Positions 1 through 58,386 of a stretch of DNA of 64,000 nt are shown in pieces. Every line of letters begins with the position of its first letter. Within the stretch, counting starts at the first letter, position 1. A program made the translations under genes and the position numbers. The notes under the pieces were generated by a model. It was not told the DNA's origin. It saw only the letters and a list, made by a program, of their open reading frames with translations, and searched no databases. Origin of the DNA: Alphaproteobacteria bacterium (lineage in GTDB: Bacteria; Pseudomonadota; Alphaproteobacteria; UBA2966); assembly GCA_964291395.2 (NCBI GenBank), contig OZ219858.1:64001-128000 (forward strand), given 5' to 3'.

Positions 1-1466
1 ACGGCACCGGCCGCAAGGCGGTCGAACACGTCCAGCGCCTGTGCCGGCGATTCGGGAAGAAAGACCTGCTGGAAGCGATCGACGAGATCCTCGCCCGCTC
101 CGAGAGGGTCATGCGAAGCCGCATCCGGGCCCTCGAAGACGGCGACTACTACGCCGAGGGATTCATGGAGAGCACGGGCACGAGTCCCGAGCCCCTGGTC
201 CTGCGCCTCAAGCTGAGCGTGAAAGGCGATCGCCTGATCGCGGACTACACGGGGACCTCGCCGCAGACCGCGGGACCCACCAACGTCGGTCCGGCGATGA
301 CGATGACGTCCCTCTGCACGATCGTGAAGTCCTTCCTCGACCCGGGAACCCCCGTCAATCACGGCTCGTTCGAGCCCATCGAGATCGTCTCGCCGCCCGG
401 CACCTTCATCAACGCGACGTACCCCGCCGCCTGCGGCGGCATGACGGAGGTCAAGACCCTGCTGGACTCGGTAGGCTCGACCGCCATGGGCCAGGCGGTC
501 CCGGAGATGAAGGTCGGGGACCTCAAGGGGGGCGCCAATCACACGTACATTTCCGGACCGGATCCGCACCGCGACGACGACATCTACTTGCTTTATGAAT
601 GGATCGCCGGCGGGACCGGGGCGTCGGAAGGCCACGACGGCAACAACGGCGTGCGCAATTACACCGAAGGCGACTTCAACTCGGTCCACGCGGTCGAAAT
701 CGTCGAGAGCCAGTACCCGATCGCCGTCGACCGCTTCGAGATCCGCGCAGGATCCTGCGGCGACGGCAAGTGGCGGGGCGGCTTCGGCGTACGCCGCGAT
801 GTCCGGGTCAAGAGCGACACCGGCGCGCTGTCGGTCCTCACCGACAAGTGCGTCATCCCGCCCTTCGGCGTGCACGGCGCCAAGAACGGCGCGGGCAACC
901 ATTTCGTCGTCATCCGCGACGGCGAATTCCTCGAACCATCCGCCGTTCCGGGCAAGGTCTCCGGCTTCCCGCTTCGGCAAGAAGACGTGGTGCGCGAGGA
1001 GTCCGCGGGCGGCGGCGGCTACGGGGACCCCCTCGAGCGGGACCCGGACCTGGTGGCAATGGACGTCCGCCTGGGCTACTTCACGGCCGATCAGGCGGAC
1101 AGGCGATACGGCGTGGTCCTGAATGCGGATGGCAGCGTCGACGGGCCCGCGACCGGGCGCCGCCGGCAGGAGCTAGGGGACGAGCGTATCCACGTGGCCG
1201 TCCAAGCGGCCAACGAGGAGATGAACGCCGGCGCGAAGCGCGAATTCGTCGTGCCGTCCGACGTGGCCGCGCGGTTGGGGATCGGCGAAGGCGACCTCGT
1301 CGAGCTGATCGCCGGTACCGGACCGCTCGTGCGGGGGTGGGCGCGCATCGGCGATGCCGACGGCGACGCACCGGTCATGGTCGGCGCATCGGCGTTCAAC
1401 CTCCTGAAGGCGGCGCCGGGAGGACCGACGGAGATTCGGCGAGTCGTCTCCACACCGCCGGAGTAG
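1..1466 (+). CDS. Hydantoinase B/oxoprolinase family protein, 5' end outside the window, with a C-terminal extension
   Basis: Frame is open from base 3 into ORF 111..1466. Motifs AGGTGA, GDGKWRGGFG and GGGGYGDPLERDP are typical of the family. Confidence 0.9.
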   Translation, partial: GTGRKAVEHVQRLCRRFGKKDLLEAIDEILARSERVMRSRIRALEDGDYYAEGFMESTGTSPEPLVLRLKLSVKGDRLIADYTGTSPQTAGPTNVGPAMTMTSLCTIVKSFLDPGTPVNHGSFEPIEIVSPPGTFINATYPAACGGMTEVKTLLDSVGSTAMGQAVPEMKVGDLKGGANHTYISGPDPHRDDDIYLLYEWIAGGTGASEGHDGNNGVRNYTEGDFNSVHAVEIVESQYPIAVDRFEIRAGSCGDGKWRGGFGVRRDVRVKSDTGALSVLTDKCVIPPFGVHGAKNGAGNHFVVIRDGEFLEPSAVPGKVSGFPLRQEDVVREESAGGGGYGDPLERDPDLVAMDVRLGYFTADQADRRYGVVLNADGSVDGPATGRRRQELGDERIHVAVQAANEEMNAGAKREFVVPSDVAARLGIGEGDLVELIAGTGPLVRGWARIGDADGDAPVMVGASAFNLLKAAPGGPTEIRRVVSTPPE

Positions 1467-1547
1467 CTGTCGTTGCCCTAGCCCTGCCTCTCTCGTCTCT
1501 CGCCTCGGCAAATCCTCCGGCGGGGGTGGGAGGGGGGAGTCGAACGG

Positions 1548-2693
1548 CTAGTCCAACTCCCGCAACAAACGCAGCAGGAACCGGGACCGCTCGCAAAGGC
1601 GGTCGACGACGATATGCTCGTGTTCGGCATGGGCGCCGGCACCCACCACGCCGAGGCCGTCGAGGGTCGGTACGCCGAGAGCCGCGGCGAAGTTTCCGTC
1701 CGAGACGCCGCCCGCCCATGTCTCCTTCAGGTCGAGGCCCACATCGGCCGCGACCGACTTCGCCCGCTCGAAAAGAGCCATACCGGCCTCGCTGCGCTCG
1801 AACGGCGGGCGGTTGATGCCACCCAGAACCTCCACCTCGATATCCTCCCCTTCGGCCCGCAGCCCGAGAAGGACCTGCTCCAGTTCGTCCGCCTCCGCCG
1901 GGTCGGCGAAGCGGAGATCGACTTCGGCCTCCGCCTCTTCCGGCACCACGTTCGGCCGCGTCCCGCCGCGTACCGTTCCCACGTTGAGCGTGACACCGCG
2001 CCCGTAGTCCGTCATGGCCTCGATCTTCACGATCATGCGCGCCAGTTCCGCAATCGCGCTCCGCCCCAACCGATGGTCGGATCCTGCATGCGCCGCCCGG
2101 CCCCGCACGCGAATGCGGAACCGCCCCCATCCGCTCCGCGTCGTTACGGCAGCACCATGCGGCGGCCGCGCAGGCTCGTTCACGAGCACGTATTTCGCCC
2201 GCCGGGCCTCGGCTTCGATAACCTCCCGCGAAGTCGGGCTGCCGACCTCCTCGTCCGAGACGAGAACGACCGTTATGGGCAGCGGAGGCCTGTCATCGGA
2301 CGCCATGATCGTTCGGATGGCGTCGCAGACCAGGTAGGCGCCTCCCTTCATGTCGTAGATGCCGGGCCCGTACGCCTTGCCGTCCTCCACCCGGAACGGG
2401 CGTGCTTCCAGGGTGCCCATCGACCACACCGTATCGAGGTGGCCGAGCACCATGATCCCGGCCTCATTGGTCGCCCAGGGCGTTCGGCCGATCAGGTGAT
2501 CGCCAAAGCCGTCCCGTCCCGGAATTCGTTCGGTTTCCAGACCAGCGTCGCCGAGGCTTCCCTCGACCAAGTCGACCATGCGATTGACCGCATCCGCGTC
2601 GGTGGACGGCGACTCGATCTCCACCCAGGATCGAATGCCCGCGAGCAGCCGTTGGTTTTCCTCTTGGGTTTCGGCCATTGCCTGAGCGTTCAA
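1548..2693 (-). CDS. M20 family metallopeptidase (glutamate carboxypeptidase-like)
   Basis: Motifs GHLDTV, GPGIYDMKGG, SDEEVGS, AHAG, DGLG and HAEHE. Alternative start is ATG 2678. Confidence 0.9.
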   Translation of the reverse strand: MNAQAMAETQEENQRLLAGIRSWVEIESPSTDADAVNRMVDLVEGSLGDAGLETERIPGRDGFGDHLIGRTPWATNEAGIMVLGHLDTVWSMGTLEARPFRVEDGKAYGPGIYDMKGGAYLVCDAIRTIMASDDRPPLPITVVLVSDEEVGSPTSREVIEAEARRAKYVLVNEPARPPHGAAVTTRSGWGRFRIRVRGRAAHAGSDHRLGRSAIAELARMIVKIEAMTDYGRGVTLNVGTVRGGTRPNVVPEEAEAEVDLRFADPAEADELEQVLLGLRAEGEDIEVEVLGGINRPPFERSEAGMALFERAKSVAADVGLDLKETWAGGVSDGNFAAALGVPTLDGLGVVGAGAHAEHEHIVVDRLCERSRFLLRLLRELD

Positions 2694-3553
2694 ACCTTGA
2701 TGAAGGGGTTGATCGCCTCCGGCTCCGCCTCACCCTCTCGCTGATCGAGATAGGCTTGGGCGACCTGCTCGCAGGTGGCGAACCAGACGTCATCGAATTC
2801 CCGCATGAAGGCGATGAATTCCCGCAGCAGGGCGATTCGCGACGGGCGCCCGATGCCCTGCGGGTGCATGACGAGGTCGAGATAAGCGCCCCAGCTATGG
2901 ATCTCGCGGAACTCCTCCCTCCAGATCGACAGGATATGCTCGTTGGTCGCCATCGGTCGCGGCACGCTGATGGTGAAGAAAAGGTAAGGCGCGTCGTCGG
3001 TCGACCAGTGCCAGGGCAGTTCCACAGGGCCGGGACGTCCGTCCTCAAGCACATGCTGGTAGGGGACGATGTCGTCCAGCAGAGAGCTGTCGTAGAGGAA
3101 GCCGCGGTCAGTCAGGAGACGAAGCTGATCCATCGTGGTCTCGCCGGCCGGGGACCTGTAGCCGACGGGTCGCACGCCAACGGTCTTCTCCAGGGCTTCC
3201 AGGCCCCGATCCAGCTCTTCCAGGACCTCGTCCGGCTTGTCGGGATCGGGCCATTTGTGGAGATAGCCGTGGTGGGCGACTTCGTGGCCGTGTTCGAGGA
3301 TCATTTCGACCCGCTGCGTGCGGTTCTCGGCGACCCAACCAGGGACGAAGAAGGTTGCCGGCAACCCTTCGTCCTTGAGAAGCTCAAGGATCCGGGGAAC
3401 ACCGACCTTGGCGCCGTAGGTGCCATAGGAGAGGGTGCCGGGACGCTTGAGATTTTCGGGATCGCGGCTGATCCAGTTGGTCTCGGAGTCGAAATCGAAC
3501 GACAGCGACACCGCGCATCTGGCGCCGTCCGGCCACGTGACGTTGTGTATCAT
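2690..3553 (-). CDS. Polysaccharide deacetylase family protein (PuuE/PgdA-like)
   Basis: Motifs SFDFD, ATFFVPG, HEVAHHGYLH, GYRSP, YDSS and MHPQGIGRPSR. Confidence 0.88.
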   Translation of the reverse strand: MIHNVTWPDGARCAVSLSFDFDSETNWISRDPENLKRPGTLSYGTYGAKVGVPRILELLKDEGLPATFFVPGWVAENRTQRVEMILEHGHEVAHHGYLHKWPDPDKPDEVLEELDRGLEALEKTVGVRPVGYRSPAGETTMDQLRLLTDRGFLYDSSLLDDIVPYQHVLEDGRPGPVELPWHWSTDDAPYLFFTISVPRPMATNEHILSIWREEFREIHSWGAYLDLVMHPQGIGRPSRIALLREFIAFMREFDDVWFATCEQVAQAYLDQREGEAEPEAINPFIKV

Positions 3554-3656: not shown

Positions 3657-4604
3657 CTAGCCGTGCAGGGCGGACTTGGCGAGCATCATGTGCACGCCCT
3701 TGTGCTGGTTGACGATTTGGCTGACATGAAGGTCGGCCGCGATGCTGCAAAGCGTGTACGCGTCTTCCTTCGACAGATTGGCCCGCTCCTGGATCAGGGT
3801 CAGCATATCCCCCAACGCCTTCTTGGCCGCGTCGTCGAGATCGGGATCGAAAGCCATGGTGATGTAGTGGGTCGGCGTCTCCGCCCGCGGCGAGTCCAGT
3901 TCCATGTCCTTGCGCAGGTGAAGCTCGAACGTACCCGACAGGCAGGTCTCGATGGCGGTGACGCAGACTTCGCCGTCCCCCTGGGCAGCATGCCCGTCGC
4001 CCGCGGAGAACAAGGCACCCGGGTTGAACACGGGAAGATAGAGAGTGGTGCCCGGCAGCAAGTCCTTGACGTCCATATTGCCGCCGTGCTGACGCGGAAT
4101 GATCGAGGTGATGCGTCCCCAGGCGGGCGGTGGCGCCACCCCCATTACACCGAAGAAGGGGGTGAGCGGCAGGTCGACGCCCCAGGGCAGCTCGGCGACC
4201 ATGCGCTCGCGGTCCAACGGGATATGAAGGAGCCGCTTGTCGGGGAACTCCTCGGGCAAGGCACCCGCCAAGGGGCGGATGAGGTTCCAACCCCAGTCCT
4301 GGCGCAGCCGGACGTCCAGGATGCGCACCTCGAGAACGTCCCCGGGCACGGCGCCGCGGACGGCCACCGGGCCCGTCATGATGTGACCGACGGGTTCCGG
4401 GGGCACGTTCTCGTGCACCTCGAGGTGTTCGGGGAGTATCTCGAACCTGCCGTGGGGCAGGACCTCGGGCGTTCCGGAAAGGCAGTGAAGCGTGACGGCA
4501 TCACCCGGCTCGACCTCGAGGACCGGCGGCAGCGACGCGTCGAAGATTCCCCAGTGAACCGTCCGGGGACCGGCATGGAGCTCGTGATGTCGTCCCATCC
4601 GCAA
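3657..4604 (-). CDS. Acetamidase/formamidase family protein
   Basis: Motifs HIMTGPVAV, GGNMD and GDGHAAQGDGEVC. Confidence 0.9.
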   Translation of the reverse strand: MRMGRHHELHAGPRTVHWGIFDASLPPVLEVEPGDAVTLHCLSGTPEVLPHGRFEILPEHLEVHENVPPEPVGHIMTGPVAVRGAVPGDVLEVRILDVRLRQDWGWNLIRPLAGALPEEFPDKRLLHIPLDRERMVAELPWGVDLPLTPFFGVMGVAPPPAWGRITSIIPRQHGGNMDVKDLLPGTTLYLPVFNPGALFSAGDGHAAQGDGEVCVTAIETCLSGTFELHLRKDMELDSPRAETPTHYITMAFDPDLDDAAKKALGDMLTLIQERANLSKEDAYTLCSIAADLHVSQIVNQHKGVHMMLAKSALHG

Positions 4605-4641
4605 TCCTTTCCCGCCGAGCCGGGATCGGTCGACCTCCGGT

Positions 4642-5826
4642 TCAGGCGGACTGACCGACCGCGGCCTCCCGTCTCCGTTTCAGGAGCAGCCACAACGTCG
4701 CGGCCAACGCCGCCAACAGGAACGGTATGGCGCCGAGGTTCACCGTATTCCAACCGAAGACGTGCAACAATCCGCCCGACGAGAGCGACGCTAAGGCCAC
4801 GGAGCCGAACACGAGGAAGTCGTTGAGCCCCTGCACCTTGGCCTTTTCCGCCGGATCGTGGGCTTCCGTGAGCAGGGTCGTCCCGCCGATGAAGAGGAAG
4901 TTCCAGCCCACACCCAGCAGGACCAGCGCGATCCAGAAATGATAGAGGGTGATTCCCGCCACGGCAGCCGCAACGCTCCCGAACAGGAGCAGCGCCCCCG
5001 TCACCATGATCCTGAGAACGCCGAAGCGGCCGATGAGATGGCCGGTGAAGAAGGACGGCGCAAACATGCCGATGACGTGCCACTCGATGACGAAGATGGT
5101 TCTGCTGTAGGACAGGTCGCAGGCGATCATCGCCAGAGGACTCGCGGTCATCACGAGGCTCATGACGCTGAAACCCACCATGGCCCCGACGACGGCAACG
5201 GCAAACACCGGCTGGCGGACGATTTCGGAAAGCGGACGCCCGGTTTCCCGCCGCTCTTCCGGAGTCAGGCTCGGGAGTCTCAGTTGCGTCAGCAGCAGGA
5301 TGACGAGCAGACACAGCAGGATGACGGAGAGATAGGTGCCGAGAAACGTGTACGGCGCAAAGAAATCCTTCGTGAACTTGCTGCTCTCCGGCCCCAGCAC
5401 GCCGCCGACGATCCCTGCCGCCAGGACCCATGAGATGGCCCTGGCCTTGAAATCGGAAGACGCGGACTCGGCGGCGGCGAACCGGTACTGATGGGCGAAG
5501 GCATTCTGGGTTCCCAGAAAGAACGTTCCCAGGCCGAACAACCAGAAGTTTCCGATATAGATCGCGTAGCTGCACAACAGTCCGCCGACCATGCCGACGG
5601 CGGCGCCCGACATGAACCCATAGCGCCGGCCGACGATCCGCATCCACTGGGCGGCGGGAATCGTCGACAACGCGACGCCGATGACGAAGGTGCTCGCCGG
5701 CAGCGTCGCAAACGCCTTGTTCTCCGCCAGACTCTGGCCGATCAGCCCCGCCAAAGCGACGACCGTTACGCTGACGACGAGCGCGACGGCCTGGCAGCCC
5801 GCCAGGATGGCGATGTTCCGGTTCAT
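4642..5826 (-). CDS. MFS transporter
   Basis: 394 aa with about 12 hydrophobic segments. Motifs YRFAAAE, HVIGMFAPSFFTG and GWNFLF. Confidence 0.9.
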   Translation of the reverse strand: MNRNIAILAGCQAVALVVSVTVVALAGLIGQSLAENKAFATLPASTFVIGVALSTIPAAQWMRIVGRRYGFMSGAAVGMVGGLLCSYAIYIGNFWLFGLGTFFLGTQNAFAHQYRFAAAESASSDFKARAISWVLAAGIVGGVLGPESSKFTKDFFAPYTFLGTYLSVILLCLLVILLLTQLRLPSLTPEERRETGRPLSEIVRQPVFAVAVVGAMVGFSVMSLVMTASPLAMIACDLSYSRTIFVIEWHVIGMFAPSFFTGHLIGRFGVLRIMVTGALLLFGSVAAAVAGITLYHFWIALVLLGVGWNFLFIGGTTLLTEAHDPAEKAKVQGLNDFLVFGSVALASLSSGGLLHVFGWNTVNLGAIPFLLAALAATLWLLLKRRREAAVGQSA

Positions 5827-30403: not shown

Positions 30404-31951
30404 TCAAGCGCTCAGCGCTATCGGTGCCGTCCTCTCCCTTTTGACCATCAGTTTGTTGAGCGCGTTTACATACGCCCGAGCCGAAGCCACGAGCGTATCG
30501 GTATCCGCCCCCTGTCCGTTCACGGTCTTACCCGCTTCTTCAAGCCGAACCGTTACTTCGGCCTGGGCGTCGGTGCCCTCGGTTACCGCATGCACTTGAT
30601 ACAACTGCAAATTCGCGTCGTGCGGCACCAATTCCTTGATCGCGTTGAAGGTTGCATCGACGGGCCCGTCCCCGGTCGACTTGGTCGACCTTATCTCGCC
30701 CTCGACGTCGAGCTCGAGCTCCGCCGTTTGCGGACCCCTTGAACCCGCGACGACGTAAAGAGAGACGAATCTGATCCGATCGTCTGCTCTCAGTTCGTCA
30801 TCGACGAGAGCGATGATATCTTCGTCGAAGACATCCTTCTTCTTATCTGCGAGGTCCTTGAAACGGCGAAAGGCGTCGTTGAGCGCATTGTCGCCCAGCT
30901 CAAACCCCAGCTCACGGAGCTTCTCGCGGAAGGCATGACGCCCCGAGTGCTTGCCCATCACGAGATTGGACTTGTTCAGTCCCACCGACTCCGGAGTCAT
31001 GATCTCGTAGGTACCGGCGTGCTTGAGCACCCCGTCCTGATGAATGCCGGCTTCGTGGGCGAAGGCGTTGGCACCAACGATCGCCTTGTTTGGCTGCACG
31101 GTGAAGCCGGTGATCGCTGCCACGAGGCGAGACGCCTTGGTGATGTTCTCGCTCTGGACCCCGGTGACGAAGGGCATGAGATCGTTGCGCGTTCGAAGCG
31201 CCATCACGATCTCCTCAAGAGCCGCGTTCCCGGCCCTCTCACCCAAGCCGTTGATCGTACATTCGACCTGACGCGCGCCGTTGGCGACGCCCGCCAAGGA
31301 GTTGGCGACCGCCAGTCCCAGATCGTTGTGGCAGTGAGTCGAAACCCGCGCCTTGTCGATGTTGGGCACCCGATCGAACAGCATGCGGATCAAGGCGCCG
31401 AACTCCTCCGGAATGGCGTAGCCAACGGTGTCCGGGATGTTGATCGTCGTCGCACCGGCCTTGATGGCAGACTCGACACAGCGGCACAGGAAATCGTGCT
31501 CCGTGCGCGTTCCGTCCTCGGGACTCCATTCAACGTCATCGGTGAAGGAGCGCGCGTAGGTCACGGAATCGACGACCGCCTCGTGCACGGCCTCGGACTC
31601 CATCTGGAGCTTGTATTTCATGTGCAGCGGGCTGGTGGACAGAAAGGTGTGGATCCGCATCCGTTCCGCCGGCTTCAACGCCTCGGCTGCCCGGTCGATG
31701 TCCTTCCGCCCAGCCCGCGCAAGACCGCAGATCACGGACTTCTTGACGACTTGGGCGATTTCGTGAACCGCCTCGAAATCGCCGTTGGAGGCGATGGGGA
31801 AGCCGGCCTCGATCACGTCGACACCCATCTCCTCCAGAACCTCCGCGAGACGCAGTTTCTCCTCAAGGTTCATGGAGGCGCCCGGTGATTGCTCACCGTC
31901 ACGCATGGTCGTGTCGAAAATCAGTACTTGGTTTGAATCCGTACCGGTCAT
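30404..31951 (-). CDS. leuA: 2-isopropylmalate synthase
   Basis: Motifs DTTMRDGEQ, HCHNDLG, GERAGN and HEAGIHQDG, plus the regulatory domain GDGPVDA. Confidence 0.97.
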   Translation of the reverse strand: MTGTDSNQVLIFDTTMRDGEQSPGASMNLEEKLRLAEVLEEMGVDVIEAGFPIASNGDFEAVHEIAQVVKKSVICGLARAGRKDIDRAAEALKPAERMRIHTFLSTSPLHMKYKLQMESEAVHEAVVDSVTYARSFTDDVEWSPEDGTRTEHDFLCRCVESAIKAGATTINIPDTVGYAIPEEFGALIRMLFDRVPNIDKARVSTHCHNDLGLAVANSLAGVANGARQVECTINGLGERAGNAALEEIVMALRTRNDLMPFVTGVQSENITKASRLVAAITGFTVQPNKAIVGANAFAHEAGIHQDGVLKHAGTYEIMTPESVGLNKSNLVMGKHSGRHAFREKLRELGFELGDNALNDAFRRFKDLADKKKDVFDEDIIALVDDELRADDRIRFVSLYVVAGSRGPQTAELELDVEGEIRSTKSTGDGPVDATFNAIKELVPHDANLQLYQVHAVTEGTDAQAEVTVRLEEAGKTVNGQGADTDTLVASARAYVNALNKLMVKRERTAPIALSA

Positions 31952-32005
31952 GGTTTTCAGTCCTTCGAACTCTATTCGGGCTTGATTTGCAAGAAACCAC
32001 CTTTT

Positions 32006-32124
32006 CCCCTGATCACCCGCGACCTCGGCGGTGCGGCAGTTCAGGGGCAAATAAGTCGAAGGACCTCCGTCAGAAGACGGTGTCCGCCCAGCGACAGGAG
32101 CCCATCCTGGCAGCACGATGCCAT
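32006..32124 (-). promoter_or_regulatory. leuA leader: Leu-rich leader peptide (32041..32124) plus a helix overlapping its stop codon
   Basis: Peptide MASCCQDGLLSLGGHRLLTEVLRLICP* has 7 Leu in 27 aa. CCCCTGA (which contains the stop) can pair with TCAGGGG downstream. Confidence 0.7.
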
Positions 32125-32360
32125 ACGGTTAACAAGGACTCGTTGCGTCGAACTGGTCATCTTCACGGACACATGCCGTCGGATATTACAGAAGCGGGAA
32201 ACCGTCTCCGACCGAAGTTGACAATCGGTAAAAGAAACGGCTGCCCGAGCATTTTATACCGTGGAGTCCGAGATTTACTTCCTCCACGGAGGATTTCCTT
32301 TTACGCTGAATTGGAGCCAAGGTGCAACCGGTTTGTCGGTTCCGGACCGGCGTCAATCGC

Positions 32361-33344
32361 TTATCGTTTGATTCTTCGCATCTCCTCGACGAGATGAGGC
32401 AGAATTTCTCGGCAATCCCCGACGACACCGAAGCGCGCAGAGGCGAAAATGTCGGCGTCCTCGTCCGTGTTTATGGCGACGATGGTTTTGGCGTTGCCGC
32501 AGCCCGCCATGTGCTGGCCCGCCCCCGAAATTCCCAGGGCGATATAGAGATCGGGTGCCACGGTCTTTCCGGAAAGGCCGATCTGGTAGCCCGGCGGGCA
32601 CCAGCCAAGATCACAGGCCACGCGGCTGGCGCCGACCGCGCCATCCAGCACGTCGGCGAGTTCCTTCGCGTCGGCGAAGCCGTCGGGACCGCCGATGCCA
32701 CGTCCGCCGGCGACGATGACATTGGCATTCTCCAGGCGCACTCCCACCGCACGTTCCGTGTCGCGTTCCACTACCCGCGTTCGAATTCTATCGGGCGTTA
32801 CGACGGCGTCACGGGCGATCAGGGCGCCGCTCCGGGTATCGTCACGTGGCAACGCATCGAAGGATTTGGCCTTGATCGTGGCGATTGCGGGGGTACTCCT
32901 GAAGGAGACCTGCTCCAGCGCGATGCCGCCGTAGCAAGGACGGGTGAAGCAGAGATCTTCGGCGTCGACGTCCACGCAGCCGGTCGCCACGGAGCTTCCC
33001 AGGCGGAATGCCAGGCGCGGGGCGAGATCGGCACCGACGTTCGTATGCGGCACGAGAATGGCCACCGGAGCGACTTCGCTGCTCAGAGCCTCCAGGTCGG
33101 GCAGCCAAGCGTCCGCCTGGTAGGGCTCGAACAGCTCGTCGTCGATGGTGTGAACCTCGTCGGCACCTCCCGCAATGAGGTTCCTGCCGACAGCCTCGCC
33201 GACACCGGCACCGAGACACGCGGCGATGACTTTGCCGCCCTTGGCTCCTGCGATAACGCTGGCCAGGGCGATCAGCTCCAGCGTCAATTGGGTCGGCGTG
33301 CCTTCTTCGAGCTCCACGACCGCCAGAACATTACCCGTCCCCAT
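32361..33344 (-). CDS. etfA: Electron transfer flavoprotein alpha subunit
   Basis: Motifs VAGGRG, GASRVA, QIGLSG, GISGAGQH and AINTD. Confidence 0.93.
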   Translation of the reverse strand: MGTGNVLAVVELEEGTPTQLTLELIALASVIAGAKGGKVIAACLGAGVGEAVGRNLIAGGADEVHTIDDELFEPYQADAWLPDLEALSSEVAPVAILVPHTNVGADLAPRLAFRLGSSVATGCVDVDAEDLCFTRPCYGGIALEQVSFRSTPAIATIKAKSFDALPRDDTRSGALIARDAVVTPDRIRTRVVERDTERAVGVRLENANVIVAGGRGIGGPDGFADAKELADVLDGAVGASRVACDLGWCPPGYQIGLSGKTVAPDLYIALGISGAGQHMAGCGNAKTIVAINTDEDADIFASARFGVVGDCREILPHLVEEMRRIKR

Positions 33345-33356
33345 GACTCCTCGCCC

Positions 33357-34169
33357 TCACACTATTTTCTCTTCGACGAGCCGCCGGGCGAGCGCGCTGG
33401 CGACCGCCTGCGCTCCGTCGCCTTCGATGAACTCGCACCGAGCGTCGGAGACAGGCACGTAAAGCCGCTCCAGGGTCCGGCGCGCGGCCGCCGCGCCTAC
33501 GTCCTGGGCGTCCACGCCGATATCGGCTGGTGCCCAGGCCTCGACCGGCTTTTTTGCCGCACGCATGGTTTCACGCAGACTCGCGTTACGGACGTTGCCC
33601 ATCTCGTGCGAAACGGTAACCAGGGCGGGGAGCGGCGCTTCGACGGTCTCGGAGCCGTCCCCCAGAACCCGAACCACCCGGACCGCGCCGTCAACGACGT
33701 CGATCTTCCGGGCGAATGTGATCGCGGGGACACCGAGCAACTCGGCCAAGCCGGGCCCCACCATGCCGGCATCGAAATCGGCGGCCTGCCGTCCGGCGAG
33801 CACGAGATCGACGGCCCCGAGCTTCGCAATCGCCTTGGACAGGGCATAGGCGGTCGCATACCCGTCCGAGTCGGCGAAGGCGGGATCACTCATCATCACG
33901 GCGTCGTCCACGCCGAGCGCCAGCACGTGCTTGAGGATCTTCCGCGCGCTCTCGTCGCCGATCGTCAGCGCCGTGACTCGGACTTCAGCCTCTTCTCCCA
34001 TCGCATCTCGGACGCGCAACGCCGCTTCGACCGCCTGTTCGTCGAACGGACTGATGACCGGCGACATGCCCGGAACCACGATGACCTGCTTGGCGTCCTC
34101 GTCGACGCGAAACAGGCTCGGCGCGATTTCCGGGTCGGGAATTTGCTTGATGCAGACCGCGATATGCAC
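33357..34169 (-). CDS. etfB: Electron transfer flavoprotein beta subunit
   Basis: Motifs VCIKQIPD, SPFDEQAVEAA and AGRQAADFDAGMVG. Confidence 0.93.
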   Translation of the reverse strand: MHIAVCIKQIPDPEIAPSLFRVDEDAKQVIVVPGMSPVISPFDEQAVEAALRVRDAMGEEAEVRVTALTIGDESARKILKHVLALGVDDAVMMSDPAFADSDGYATAYALSKAIAKLGAVDLVLAGRQAADFDAGMVGPGLAELLGVPAITFARKIDVVDGAVRVVRVLGDGSETVEAPLPALVTVSHEMGNVRNASLRETMRAAKKPVEAWAPADIGVDAQDVGAAAARRTLERLYVPVSDARCEFIEGDGAQAVASALARRLVEEKIV

Positions 34170-34187
34170 GGACCCGTCCCTTTCGTC

Positions 34188-35447
34188 TTACTCGATCTCG
34201 ATATCCACGGGGACGATCCCGTCGAAGTGCTTACGCTGGAAATTCCATTCGGTCACCGGCTGCCTGCGGCCCTTCTCATCGGTACCACGGGACATCAACG
34301 TATGATACCCCGGCTGGGCGTCCCACAGATAAGACCAGCGGCGCCACAAGTAGCGGTCGGCGTGCTCTTCGATGTGGGCGTCGTTCCACGTCTCGCCGTT
34401 GTCGGTAGAAACCTCGACCCGGATCATGGCGCCCTCCCCGCTCCAAGCGAGGCCCCGAATCGCGTACGTGTCGGCCGGCAACGGCGACTCCTCCTCGAGT
34501 GGCTCGGTGATCACCGTTTTCACGCCGAGGGCGGTCATCATCTCCTTGTCGGGATCGTCGGGCCCCTTGCCCGATACGAAGTAGTGGGTCTGGTGGTAAC
34601 AGTCCGGCATACGGTCCATCACCTCGATCTTGTGGATCCACTTGACCCACCAATTTCCCGCCCAGCCCGGGACCACCATGCGGACGGGCGCACCATGCAC
34701 GTGGGTCAGGTATTCGCCGTTATGGGCCCAGGCGAGAATGGTCTCGGAATCCATCGCCTTTTCGATGGGCAGTCCCTTGTCGTAGTTGATGACGCCGGGA
34801 TCATGGACCTCAAAGTCCGTGCGCCCCACCGAGCGGTACTGGATGGTGGAATCCGGGCGGCCACGATCGAACCCTTCGACGCGAATGGCGACGGCGGAAT
34901 CCTTGATCCCCACACGCTCCAGCACCTCCCTGAGACGGGTACCGGTCCACTCACCTCCCGACACGATGCAGGTGGCAGGGATCAACGAACTCAGCTCCTC
35001 CAGGTCCAACGCTCCGCTCTCCGCCATGCCGTGCCAGTCAATGCCCTCCACCTCCTCGCGCACGGTACGCGAAGGCTTGGGCATGTTGCCGCCCTTGGCA
35101 CGAGACTCCAGATAATCCCAGAATTCCGTGTCATCGCCCGCACACTCCGTCACCGCGCGAACGGTATGGCCGGGCAGCTTTCGCAGGTCCCCAAGCGTGT
35201 AGGTCATGGGGTTCTCGACCTCGCCGAAGATCTCGAAGGAATAGTCGTCCGGATGAACCGGCTCCGGCATTTGTAGCTGAGCAACGATGTAGTAGGCATC
35301 CGTCGGCGTGATGAGACCTTCCAGCTCGAGAAACGGGGTGCGCGCGTGGATCGTGCGGCCTTCTTGGTCCTTGCTTGGCGACAGCCGGTAGCGCTTGCGG
35401 TCCGGCCAGCCCATCACCCAATCACCCTCGATCTCCTTCCGCGGCAT
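34188..35447 (-). CDS. Sulfite-oxidase-family molybdopterin oxidoreductase (atypical, no signal peptide)
   Basis: Motifs LITP, TECAG, EWTG, HGAPVRMVVPGWAG..VKW and GLAWSG...VEVSTD, plus the Mo-co dimer domain W..W...RGTD. Confidence 0.85.
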   Translation of the reverse strand: MPRKEIEGDWVMGWPDRKRYRLSPSKDQEGRTIHARTPFLELEGLITPTDAYYIVAQLQMPEPVHPDDYSFEIFGEVENPMTYTLGDLRKLPGHTVRAVTECAGDDTEFWDYLESRAKGGNMPKPSRTVREEVEGIDWHGMAESGALDLEELSSLIPATCIVSGGEWTGTRLREVLERVGIKDSAVAIRVEGFDRGRPDSTIQYRSVGRTDFEVHDPGVINYDKGLPIEKAMDSETILAWAHNGEYLTHVHGAPVRMVVPGWAGNWWVKWIHKIEVMDRMPDCYHQTHYFVSGKGPDDPDKEMMTALGVKTVITEPLEEESPLPADTYAIRGLAWSGEGAMIRVEVSTDNGETWNDAHIEEHADRYLWRRWSYLWDAQPGYHTLMSRGTDEKGRRQPVTEWNFQRKHFDGIVPVDIEIE

Positions 35448-35571
35448 GCTTACCTCTTCTCATTTGTGGGAGCCGGTGCCCCGAAGGGCGCCAGCGCATT
35501 CGCCGCAGAATAGCAGGCGGCATGTGCGATGGGGAGGCGGGGAGAAGGCCGAAGACACCAAGCAGAGGAAA

Positions 35572-36156
35572 TCAGAACGACGAGCGGGGTTCCTTCAGAA
35601 ATGCCAATTCGTTTGCGGTCGACTGGCGGCCCAACGTCTCGTTGCGATGGGGGAAACGCCCGAACCGCTCGATGATCTCGCAGTGCCGATGCACCGAGAA
35701 ATGCGCCCTCTCCCGGAAATCTTCGTCGAAATCCGGCAGTATCTGCGAGTAGAGCGCGACGCAGTGCCGCTGATCGGCCAGATTCTCACTGTGCTCGAAA
35801 GGTAGATAGACGAACAGGCGCTGTACGGTCATCAACTGGCGATCGACTCCGCGATCCACTGCCCGCCGCGCGATCGAGCGTGCCTTGGCGTCCGCAGAGT
35901 AAGCCTTGGGGAGCCCTCGAAAGATGTTTCGGGGAAACTGATCGAGCGTGACGATCAGAGCCAGGGTGCCTTCCACCGTTTCCTGCCACGAATCGTAGCT
36001 ACCCGCCGACGCCTTCGCGACGACCCGTCCGAAGCGGTCGCGGATCTCCGCATCGAAGGCGGCATCCTTTTCGAACCAGGCCGCCCGGTGTGAGCCAAAC
36101 TCCGTGCCGGCGGGGTCACCGAACCAAAACTTCAACACGTCCGGGTACTCGGTCAT
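35572..36156 (-). CDS. DUF924 family protein (copy 2)
   Basis: Motifs VLKFWF, LDQFPRN, YLPFEHSE and FGRFPHRN. Confidence 0.9.
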   Translation of the reverse strand: MTEYPDVLKFWFGDPAGTEFGSHRAAWFEKDAAFDAEIRDRFGRVVAKASAGSYDSWQETVEGTLALIVTLDQFPRNIFRGLPKAYSADAKARSIARRAVDRGVDRQLMTVQRLFVYLPFEHSENLADQRHCVALYSQILPDFDEDFRERAHFSVHRHCEIIERFGRFPHRNETLGRQSTANELAFLKEPRSSF

Positions 36157-36160
36157 AGCC

Positions 36161-36748
36161 TCAACCAAAACTGGATCGTGGTTCCTCAAGAAATGCCGCC
36201 TCCGCAGCGCTGGTCGCCCGCCCCAGCGTCTCGTTGCGGTGGGGAAATCGCCCGAATCGCTCGATGATCTCGCAATGGCGATGAATCGCGAAATGGAAGC
36301 GTTCGTAAAGAGCGCCGTCGAAGTCCCCAAGAATGGTCATCAGGTGCGCAACTCCCCGACGCTGATCGGCGAGGTTCTCGCTGTGCTGGAACGGCAGATA
36401 GAGAAACAGCTTCCGCATGGTCGAGAATCGCCGGTCGAAACCGCGATCCAAGGCCTGGCGCGCGACGGAGCGCGCCCTGGCGTCCGTCGCGAAGGCCGTC
36501 GGATGCCTGCGAAAAATGTTCCGAGGAAACTGGTCGAGGACGATGGTCAGCGCGAGCGCGCCGTCCGGTGTCTCCTGCCAAGCATCGCAATCGCCCGCCG
36601 ACGCCTTCGCGACGACACCTGCGAAGCGCGAACGCACCTCTGAATCGAACGCGTCGTCCTTCCCGAACCAAGCGTCCCGGAATTCGTTGAAATCCTCGTC
36701 GCCGGGATCGCCGAACCAGAACGCCAAAACCTCCGAATACCCCGTCAT
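36161..36748 (-). CDS. DUF924 family protein (copy 1)
   Basis: Motifs VLAFWF, LDQFPRN, YLPFQHSE and FGRFPHRN. Confidence 0.9.
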   Translation of the reverse strand: MTGYSEVLAFWFGDPGDEDFNEFRDAWFGKDDAFDSEVRSRFAGVVAKASAGDCDAWQETPDGALALTIVLDQFPRNIFRRHPTAFATDARARSVARQALDRGFDRRFSTMRKLFLYLPFQHSENLADQRRGVAHLMTILGDFDGALYERFHFAIHRHCEIIERFGRFPHRNETLGRATSAAEAAFLEEPRSSFG

Positions 36749-36809
36749 GGGCGGCACCCCACGGACGCGCGGCCTATTGACGCACGGCCGCGCCGAATCC
36801 GACACACGA

Positions 36810-37907
<1,098 letters not shown>

Positions 37908-57000: not shown

Positions 57001-58386
57001 CTAGATCTGAACGACCTTGCCCGGGTTCATGATATTGGCGGGGTCCAGCGCCTTCTTGATACCTCGCATGAGGCTGACGGCCTCACCATGCTCCGCGGTC
57101 AAGAAATTCAGCTTGCCATAGCCTACGCCGTGCTCGCCGGTGCAGGTTCCATCAAGTGCGAGAGCCCGTAAGACCAGGCGCTCGTTGAGACGCTCGACTT
57201 CTGCCAACTCGCGTTCGTCATTCGGATCGAAGAGGAAAACGAGATGGAAGTTGCCGTCTCCGACGTGCCCGACGAGGGGTGCCATCAAAAATGACTCCGC
57301 CAAGTCCTTTTTGGTTTCCAAGATGCATTCGGCAAGCTTCGAGATGGGCACACACACATCCGTCGCCCACATCTTGGCGCCGGGCCGGAGGGATAACGCC
57401 GCATATGCCGCGTCGTGCCGAGCTTGCCAGAGGTGGTTCCGGTCTTCCGTCCGCGTCGCCCATTGGAAGTCGCCGGCACCGTTCTCCGTCGCCAGTATCT
57501 GGACGGTTTCAGCCTGCTCGGCCACGCTCGCCTCCGAGCCGTGGAATTCGAGAAACAATGTCGGGGCGACGGGATACTGAAGGTCCGAGTAACTGTTGCA
57601 CGCTTCCATCTGCAGTTCGTCCAGCAGTTCGATACGTGCGACGGGAACACCCATCTGGATGGTCTCAATGACCGTATTGACGGCTCCTTCGATCCCGGGA
57701 AACGAACAGACGGCGGCAGACATCGCTTCCGGGATGCCGTAAAGGCGCAACGTGATCTCCGTGATGACTCCGAGGGTACCTTCCGAGCCCACGAACACGC
57801 GCGTGAGGTCGTAGCCGGCCGCCGACTTACGGGCCCGCCGCGCCGTATTGACGATGCGGCCGTCGGCCGTCACCACGGTAAGCGCAAGAACGTTCTCACG
57901 CATCGTTCCGTAGCGCACGGCGTTGGTACCTGACGCGCGGGTCGCGGTCATCCCCCCGATCGTTGCATCGGCGCCCGGATCGATCGGAAAGAACAACCCG
58001 GTATCCCGCAGATGCTCATTCAGTTGCTTGCGCCGCACACCGGCCTGCACGGTCACGTCCATATCTTCGGCGCTCGCACGCACGATTTCATTCATTTCGC
58101 TGAGATCGATACACACGCCGCCGTGAAGGGCTGCCACGTGGCCTTCCAGGGACGTGCCGATCCCGAAGGGAATAACCGGTGTTCCGTGCTCGGCGCAGAC
58201 CCGCACGATCTCAGCGACTTCCTCGGTGCTTTTCGGGAACACGACCGCGTCCGGCGCGTGCGCGGCATGATAGGACTCATCCCGCCCGTGTTGCTCGCAA
58301 GTGGCTGAGGACGTGGAGAGACGTCCTCCCAGCCGCTGCTTGAGCACCGCAACCGCCGTATTGACCTGCGCCCGTACCGCATCCAT
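57001..58386 (-). CDS. FAD-linked oxidase (D-lactate dehydrogenase/GlcD-like)
   Basis: Motifs GTSLEGH, PIDPGADA, GSEGTLG, GHVGDGNFH and GEHGVG. Confidence 0.92.
   Translation of the reverse strand: MDAVRAQVNTAVAVLKQRLGGRLSTSSATCEQHGRDESYHAAHAPDAVVFPKSTEEVAEIVRVCAEHGTPVIPFGIGTSLEGHVAALHGGVCIDLSEMNEIVRASAEDMDVTVQAGVRRKQLNEHLRDTGLFFPIDPGADATIGGMTATRASGTNAVRYGTMRENVLALTVVTADGRIVNTARRARKSAAGYDLTRVFVGSEGTLGVITEITLRLYGIPEAMSAAVCSFPGIEGAVNTVIETIQMGVPVARIELLDELQMEACNSYSDLQYPVAPTLFLEFHGSEASVAEQAETVQILATENGAGDFQWATRTEDRNHLWQARHDAAYAALSLRPGAKMWATDVCVPISKLAECILETKKDLAESFLMAPLVGHVGDGNFHLVFLFDPNDERELAEVERLNERLVLRALALDGTCTGEHGVGYGKLNFLTAEHGEAVSLMRGIKKALDPANIMNPGKVVQI

Follow-up and report, generated by a model that had tools for sequence, protein, structure and literature searches.

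To our knowledge, every characterised enzyme of the sulfite oxidase (SUOX) family delivers its electrons to a heme, a cytochrome, a copper protein or O2, and all donors known to us for electron-transferring flavoproteins (ETFs) are flavoenzymes. Plant sulfite oxidase consists only of the molybdenum cofactor (Moco) and dimerisation domains, has no heme domain, is not secreted, keeps the substrate arginines and uses O2 as the acceptor. MsrP is periplasmic and lacks the dimerisation domain, and the electrons of nitrate reductase come ultimately from flavin. Sulfite in the cytoplasm is oxidised by SoeABC, an enzyme of the dimethyl sulfoxide (DMSO) reductase type with iron-sulfur and membrane subunits, and the electrons are passed to quinone. 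Here we describe an operon from an alphaproteobacterial genome (GCA_964291395.2), located in a stretch of 64,000 nucleotides of contig OZ219858.1 (positions 64,001 to 128,000, hereafter the window), in which the gene of a SUOX-fold molybdoenzyme is followed by etfB and etfA, the genes of an ETF. An original prediction, made from the letters of the window alone, knew of no described system with this arrangement, and we found no description of a SUOX-family enzyme with an ETF in open-access papers and preprints. In excerpt, the proteome table of PMC5373536 has no more than sulfite dehydrogenases and an ETF subunit as separate entries, and the excerpt of PMC5395668 has a generic 'sulfite oxidase' in SAR202. 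We rate the enzyme as a member of a distinct cytoplasmic SUOX subfamily with a predicted new class of redox partner, for which the genomic support is solid.

The operon is composed of the following features.

35447..34188, minus strand: SUOX-fold molybdoenzyme gene, 419 amino acids
34169..33357, minus strand: etfB, 270 amino acids, Pfam domain ETF
33344..32361, minus strand: etfA, the subunit that carries flavin adenine dinucleotide (FAD), 327 amino acids, Pfam domains ETF and ETF_alpha
35448..35571, minus strand: region upstream of the molybdoenzyme gene, 124 nucleotides, containing the ribosome-binding site

The molybdoenzyme matched the Pfam family Oxidored_molyb (PF00174) with 138.6 bits (cut-off 24), the match being split in two by an insertion, and the dimerisation domain Mo-co_dimer (PF03404) with 51.8 bits (cut-off 22.7). 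Its structure was modelled using AlphaFold2 with a predicted local distance difference test score (pLDDT) of 92.3 and a predicted template modelling score (pTM) of 0.90, and the model is weak only at residues 1-20 and in part of the insertion. The Foldseek matches of the model were SorA, SoxC, SorT, chicken and plant sulfite oxidase, and nitrate reductase, with E-values of 1e-25 to 1e-34; the top match was SorA (2blf) with template modelling (TM) scores of 0.71/0.79. Among the solved structures, the chains of Starkeya SorA were also the best sequence matches (2e-36). The NCBIfam model of MsrP gave the enzyme a score of 44, to be compared with a cut-off of 207. The Pfam scan of the enzyme revealed no heme or cytochrome domain, and the N-terminus of the protein lacks an RRxFL motif as well as any hydrophobic stretch (maximum KD15 0.76), while the SorA-like paralog of the same genome has RRxFL at residue 34 and a KD15 of 1.65. 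The absence of a Tat or Sec signal and of a heme domain, as originally noticed, is thus borne out. The family has in addition a conserved N-terminal extension, EIEGDWVxGWPDRKR, and an insertion of about 45 amino acids after the molybdenum-ligating Cys, at residues ~107-160, which contains the invariant K124.

The active-site residues were compared in a MAFFT alignment (A3) of 88 rows, made up of 37 family proteins, one protein of a sister subfamily and 50 canonical sequences. In the HMMER matches to solved structures, the register relative to SorA was fixed by the R55M and H57A mutant chains. The molybdenum-ligating Cys is retained in the motif TECAG, as the original prediction had stated: C102 pairs with C104 of SorA, and the residue is present in 37/37 family and 49/50 canonical sequences. 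The motif YYIVAQ is aligned to FFVRYH of SorA, so that R55 is replaced by V55 and H57 by Q57, and R109 of SorA pairs with T107. The replacement of the usual FFVR(N/Y)H motif therefore proved correct, with neither the Arg nor the His retained. The long insertion after the Cys was likewise recovered: column 124 lies inside it and holds K in all 37 family members and a gap in all 50 canonical sequences. Further along, column 405 is G in 40/50 canonical sequences and R in 31/37 of the family, and column 406 is Y in 42/50 and K in 37/37, respectively. We conclude that the molybdoenzyme is a genuine SUOX-fold enzyme that resides in the cytoplasm and whose substrate pocket has been remodelled.

The genes of the enzyme and of one ETF clade are tightly linked in both directions. 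Starting from the enzyme, a pattern search of genome contigs yielded 451 matches and, from these, 149 relatives, the best 80 of which were kept and searched by tblastn with the proteins of the window. etfB was found immediately downstream on the same strand in 60 of the 80 loci, an adjacent divergent etfBA in two, and etfBA 3.1 kb downstream in one. It was absent from 17 loci, seven of which had less than 1 kb of downstream sequence, and etfBA is thus nearby in 63 of the 73 evaluable loci. The median gap between the enzyme gene and etfB was about 14 nucleotides (95 loci). Apart from those of Chloroflexota, the evaluable loci without linkage were for the most part additional paralogs whose genomes have a linked copy as well.

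On the ETF side, at least 597 pattern matches in metagenome contigs gave at least 513 relatives, and the counts that follow refer to the best 80 of these; a locus was considered evaluable if it had at least 400 nucleotides of upstream sequence. The motif GRQAADxDxG[VIMA][VA]G was present in 43/80, of which 36 were evaluable, and the enzyme was encoded directly upstream of etfB in 35 of these 36. The other 37 loci encoded EtfBs with other motifs, and none of the 33 that were evaluable had the enzyme upstream; their neighbours were EtfD-like CCG/Fer4 membrane proteins with acyl-CoA ligases, prfA-prmC, or FAD-linked oxidases. When the EtfBs were labelled by linkage to the enzyme, two label changes were needed on a FastTree phylogeny of 142 rows (97 linked rows vs 34) and two on an IQ-TREE phylogeny of 101 rows (69 vs 31). 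For the enzyme itself, at least six changes of linkage are required on a quick IQ-TREE phylogeny of 84 rows. SAR116 of the Alphaproteobacteria and Njordibacter/Pseudomonadales of the Gammaproteobacteria fall into one tight clade of this tree, indicating that the cassette moves between classes. The pairwise identities of the enzymes correlate with those of EtfB and EtfA (r 0.81 and 0.85, respectively; 55 loci; none of 999 permutations as high), a correlation to which shared descent adds. Taken together, the recurrence of the gene order agrees with the original proposal of a dedicated ETF. The sole evaluable locus of the motif clade without a SUOX enzyme (L136) has a gene of the aldehyde-ferredoxin-oxidoreductase family, which holds tungsten or molybdenum pterin enzymes, 886 nucleotides upstream of etfB (1264-3114 and 4001-4801), and this gene may encode a second pterin enzyme that uses this type of ETF.

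Both ETF subunits scored above the Pfam cut-offs (121.9, 114.7 and 107.7 bits; ETF in both subunits and ETF_alpha in the large one). The best PDB matches of EtfB were the small subunits of bifurcating ETFs, 6fah_B (CarD) with 5e-40 followed by 4kpu_B and 7koe_A, the bifurcating ETFs matched being CarD, EtfB of A. fermentans and FixA of T. maritima. EtfA was most similar to 5ow0_A, a Geobacter ETF (6.3e-53), and then to 5ol2_A, 6fah_A and 7koe_B. The nucleotide-site motif of EtfB is GRQAADFDAGMVG, and the consensus of the clade is GRQAADxDAG[VI]VG. According to the excerpt of PMC8958531, bifurcating ETFs have D-G-D-T-A-Q in EtfB, with Thr in 216/216 and Gln in 93%, and group 1 ETFs have D-D-D-S-N-Q. 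The EtfB described here has D-F-D-A-G-M, and the clade DxDAG[VI]V, with Ala at the position of the bifurcating Thr and Val, Ile or Met at that of the Gln, and hence it matches neither of the two canonical motifs. As the clade lacks the bifurcating Thr, a non-bifurcating ETF with a single FAD, derived from a bifurcating-like branch, is expected. An ETF that has no NADH site depends on a dehydrogenase for its reduction, and the molybdoenzyme is the only candidate in the operon. The Geobacter ETF 5ow0 accepts electrons from a dehydrogenase and donates them to a quinone reductase, according to the part seen of PMC10818641. The genome contains a single ETF:quinone oxidoreductase (ETF-QO), and in one locus elsewhere (L085) a classical ETF-QO gene follows directly after etfA. 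The ETF of the operon is not the only one of its genome, in keeping with a dedicated role: a housekeeping etfBA of the DDDSNQ type was found beside an acyl-CoA dehydrogenase gene at C3:456-458 kb.

On the basis of the sequence comparisons, we favour with moderate confidence a cytoplasmic two-component dehydrogenase, in which electrons would pass from the molybdenum enzyme to its dedicated ETF and on to quinone. The SUOX-fold enzyme would bind the molybdenum cofactor through C102 and oxidise its substrate by oxygen-atom transfer, with reduction of Mo(VI) to Mo(IV). The two electrons would leave the molybdenum enzyme singly, upon contact of the two proteins, to the FAD of the non-bifurcating EtfAB, which in turn would deliver them through ETF-QO to the respiratory chain. 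The ETF would thus take the role that cytochrome c or heme b has in the periplasmic and mitochondrial relatives. The pairing of enzyme and ETF, as judged from the gene linkage, is very probable, while the oxidative direction of the electron flow can be called rather probable.

Three other explanations have to be weighed. The electrons could flow in reverse, from reduced ETF through the molybdenum enzyme to a cytoplasmic S-oxide, N-oxide or N-hydroxylated compound, as in MsrP, mARC or nitrate reductase but with another donor. The SUOX fold does include reductases, the MsrP model is a weak match, nitrate reductase is among the fold matches and the sulfite-type Arg residues are lost; in addition, an FMO-like gene is located beside the module in L081, and a reduced ETF could reduce sulfoxides or N-oxides by established redox chemistry. 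However, the ETF lacks the invariant Thr of the NADH-oxidising bifurcating ETFs, so that no source of electrons is evident, and the dimerisation domain and the overall similarity favour the sulfite dehydrogenase branch over MsrP. As the ETF-QO gene of L085 also points in the oxidative direction, we regard reverse flow as unlikely. Even less probable is an ETF that bifurcates or confurcates despite its altered motif, coupling a very low-potential S(IV) oxidation to the reduction of NAD+ or ferredoxin. The replacement in the clade of the Thr by Ala and of the Gln by Val, Ile or Met (216/216 and 93%, respectively, in the excerpt of PMC8958531) speaks against it, as do the aerobic marine and soil lineages among the carriers and the lack of recurrent ferredoxin or FixCX genes in the loci, although EtfB is closest in sequence to bifurcating ETFs (CarD, A. 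fermentans EtfB and T. maritima FixA) and retains the VG(P) portion of the motif.

Finally, the molybdenum enzyme could be a mere hitch-hiker in the operon, using O2, as plant sulfite oxidase does, or another acceptor, while the ETF serves other flavoenzymes. This would fit the largest clades, in which the operon lies among acyl-CoA genes, where an ETF is expected, the gene of the acyl-CoA-dehydrogenase fold between enzyme and etfBA in L091, and L136, which has this ETF clade but not the enzyme. It does not fit the window's own locus or the SAR116 loci, which have no acyl-CoA dehydrogenase nearby, nor the persistence of the linkage through transfer from class to class and turnover of every other neighbour. 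Given also the specificity on the ETF side (35/36 vs 0/33 among the best 80 of at least 513), we consider hitch-hiking very unlikely.

Several observations nevertheless weigh against the proposed dehydrogenase, in particular as one that acts on sulfite. The enzyme is below the cut-offs of the NCBIfam equivalog models of SoxC (203 vs 420), SorA (179 vs 600) and SorT (140 vs 570). In the alignment, column 55 is R in 40/50 canonical sequences and in 0/37 of the family, column 57 is H in 37/50 canonical sequences and Q in 37/37 of the family, and column 107, that of R109 in SorA, is R in 41/50 canonical sequences and in none of the 37. Column 106 has gained an invariant Asp, found in 37/37 family members and 0/50 canonical sequences. 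The assignment of the active-site Tyr is ambiguous by one register, HMMER pairing the invariant Y289 with Y236 of SorA and the MAFFT alignment pairing F290 with the canonical Tyr. Family members of Chloroflexota are not linked to this ETF clade; their genomes encode, elsewhere, EtfBs of 45-47% identity with a different motif. The motif that defines the ETF clade was picked after inspection of the table, the trees being an independent check. The two largest clades of loci have acyl-CoA contexts in which no sulfur link is visible. Moreover, a periplasmic enzyme similar to SorA and a SoeAB-like candidate are encoded in the genome already. The latter (C3:928786-932000) consists of a PhsA/Psr-like molybdopterin subunit of 958 amino acids followed by a DmsB-like iron-sulfur subunit, and the NCBIfam matches of the former start past the N-terminal ~45 positions of the models, which are the signal region of exported relatives. 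The pair is a candidate for a SoeAB-like cytoplasmic sulfite dehydrogenase, and a role of the molybdoenzyme of the operon as the sole cytoplasmic sulfite route of the genome was rejected due to its presence. An msrP gene is located about 3 kb beyond this pair.

The neighbourhoods of the 80 genome loci were inspected for hints of the substrate. Only etfBA is common to all clades, and the remaining neighbours are clade-specific.

Carboxyltransferase: 30/80 loci, Betaproteobacteria, with GntR/FCD, enoyl-CoA hydratase, CoA-transferase and TctC nearby
Biotin carboxylase: 19/80 loci, Betaproteobacteria
MaoC: 13/80 loci, SAR116/Njordibacter clade, with TetR and MFS
CoxL-like: 6/80 loci
DUF924: 5/80 loci, adjacent only in the lineage of the window
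NtaA/DmoA-family monooxygenases above the cut-off: 3/80 loci (L051, L081 and L091), with SfnB-like, TauD and FMO-like genes around

The gene set around the last three loci is a typical one for organosulfur desulfonation, a process that releases sulfite. Four paralogs of the enzyme are encoded in the genome of the window, three of which, 59-82% identical, are not located beside an ETF (C1:1608263-1609516, C1:976921-978222 and C1:1572878-1574143). The neighbourhoods of these unlinked paralogs comprise an OpuAC-type ABC transporter with TauE in one case, an NMT1/SsuA-type ABC transporter with a VapC-like PIN gene and a sulfatase in another, and an Amidohydro_2 gene with a GntR regulator in a further one; TauE, the two ABC transporters and the sulfatase were counted as a hint of an S(IV) substrate. 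In addition, a sulfoacetaldehyde acetyltransferase, Xsc, is encoded at C1:708995-710725 with 926 bits at an equivalog cut-off of 676, and the organism therefore has a means of splitting sulfite off C2 sulfonates in its cytoplasm.

The loss of two Arg residues and the gain of Asp106 favour a substrate other than plain sulfite, while the gain of K124 and of R405/K406 means that an anionic substrate is still possible. The original assignment as a non-sulfite enzyme may hold: the two canonical Arg residues lost and the invariant Asp gained speak for it, but the gained K124 and R405/K406, the organosulfur contexts that release sulfite, and Xsc do not. Judging from pocket and context, the leading candidates, which we name with some doubt, would be S(IV) compounds: sulfite itself, or else hypotaurine, methanesulfinate or a similar organic sulfinate. 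More tentatively still, the enzyme could be the first molybdenum enzyme with an ETF as its physiological partner and a cytoplasmic oxotransferase for a compound other than sulfite, for example hypotaurine or methanesulfinate, whose pocket, with two Arg residues lost and Asp106, K124, R405 and K406 gained, would have moved between classes together with its private non-bifurcating ETF clade as a three-gene cassette.

The size and spread of the enzyme family were assessed by a word-indexed protein search, which gave 629 proteins with an E-value of at most 1e-10 among 4703 candidates. The best 120 of these 629 were 57-90% identical, mostly 413-420 amino acids long (range 386-490) and carried generic names only. 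Among the 80 best genome loci, which span classes and phyla, the identity was at least 56%. When clustered at 50%, the family collapsed to one representative (578 bits), whereas full-length canonical enzymes reached about 200 bits or less. The next full-length relatives beyond the family were a sister protein of 43% identity (P0121) and a fusion of 714 amino acids (P0123), in which an LLM domain is joined to a SUOX domain of the sister subfamily (40% identical). The LLM domain is closest to F420-dependent LLM oxidoreductases, yet scores under all their cut-offs, and may be a redox partner of the flavin or deazaflavin type or an enzyme that supplies the substrate. No fusions of the enzyme were found among longer proteins (735-2095 amino acids), and a search of the ESM Atlas gave generic SUOX clusters only. 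In tandem with another copy, the enzyme gene precedes a single etfBA in two Burkholderiales loci (L062 7001-9510 and L083 7001-9475), the duplicates being about 59-61% identical to the query.

The family is rare: at an E-value of at most 1e-60, it was found in one of 400 other genomes sampled in the class and in none of 400 in the phylum. Within the Alphaproteobacteria, the carriers include unnamed members, SAR116/Puniceispirillum, Rhodospirillales, Xanthobacteraceae and Aestuariivita. Elsewhere they include many Burkholderiales and other Betaproteobacteria, Nitrosomonadales, Njordibacter, Pseudomonadales, Binatia and one record of a 'delta proteobacterium'. At least half of the sampled words of the stretch 32300-35600 were present in 15 sequencing runs, 12 of which are labelled as sponge metagenome, and this suggests a lineage associated with sponges.

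Around the operon, the window contains the following genes and reading frames.

30404-32116: leuA, score above the NCBIfam cut-off
35572-36330 and 36161-36805: two DUF924 genes in tandem, immediately upstream of the operon, before ilvC
36810-37868: ilvC, score above the NCBIfam cut-off
57001-58386, minus strand: FAD oxidase with FAD_binding_4 and FAD-oxidase_C (GlcD/D-lactate dehydrogenase type)
32322-35276, plus strand: open reading frame (ORF) of 984 amino acids, antisense to all three genes of the operon, without a family match

The ORF layout and the Pfam and NCBIfam results agree with the arrangement originally described, three co-oriented genes between leuA and the DUF924/ilvC genes, separated by 18 nucleotides (34170-34187, molybdoenzyme gene to etfB) and 12 nucleotides (33345-33356, etfB to etfA). 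The surrounding leuA, ilvC, ilvH, ilvI and mreB all exceed their NCBIfam cut-offs. As the longest ORFs of the two DUF924 genes overlap, the first of them probably begins later. The molybdoenzyme gene starts with the ATG at 35447, preceded by an AGAGG ribosome-binding site, and a scan for consensus promoters and terminators at the operon yielded no more than in shuffled sequences, so that the promoter was not located. The 984-amino-acid antisense ORF is best read as an artefact of the high G+C content. The FAD oxidase at 57001 is located 22 kb from the operon and is linked to neither ETF. All three genes of the operon are covered in part by assembled contigs from four RNA libraries, one contig spanning 34948-35563, which indicates presence in the libraries and not transcription. 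Similarly, an RNA-library contig of a 97%-identical relative bridges the junction of the enzyme gene and etfB, again a sign of presence in the library and not of transcription.

If true, an ETF-coupled molybdoenzyme would be a new kind of connection between two redox families that have been studied in depth, and would explain how an enzyme of the sulfite oxidase type can function in the cytoplasm, a compartment without c-type cytochromes. The uncultured carriers are ecologically important (SAR116, sponge-associated Alphaproteobacteria, groundwater Betaproteobacteria and SAR202), and knowledge of the substrate would close a gap in the way organosulfur metabolism is modelled for the sea and for symbionts.

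Among the known systems, SorAB of Starkeya novella (2blf) is the best match in both sequence and fold, with the same Moco and dimerisation domains and the same Mo-ligand Cys. SorA is, however, periplasmic and has a heme c subunit, whereas the enzyme described here has neither a signal peptide nor a heme partner; it also differs from SorA in the lack of R55, H57 and R109, the insertion of about 45 amino acids, the N-terminal extension and the linkage to an ETF. Plant sulfite oxidase (1ogp) is another fold match, from which the enzyme is set apart by the lack of the substrate Arg residues and by the genetically attached ETF. MsrPQ (YedYZ) and the eukaryotic assimilatory nitrate reductase are SUOX-fold enzymes that act as reductases, the latter with fused heme and FAD domains, both of which are absent here. 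SoeABC could be a functional analogue, but belongs to a different enzyme family. On the side of the ETF, the closest parallel is the benzylsuccinyl-CoA dehydrogenase of Geobacter metallireducens, whose own ETF (5ow0, to which EtfA is most similar in the PDB) is encoded next to the donor enzyme, just as EtfBA is next to its candidate donor in the operon described here. The donor in that case is a flavoenzyme, while the candidate donor here is a molybdenum enzyme.

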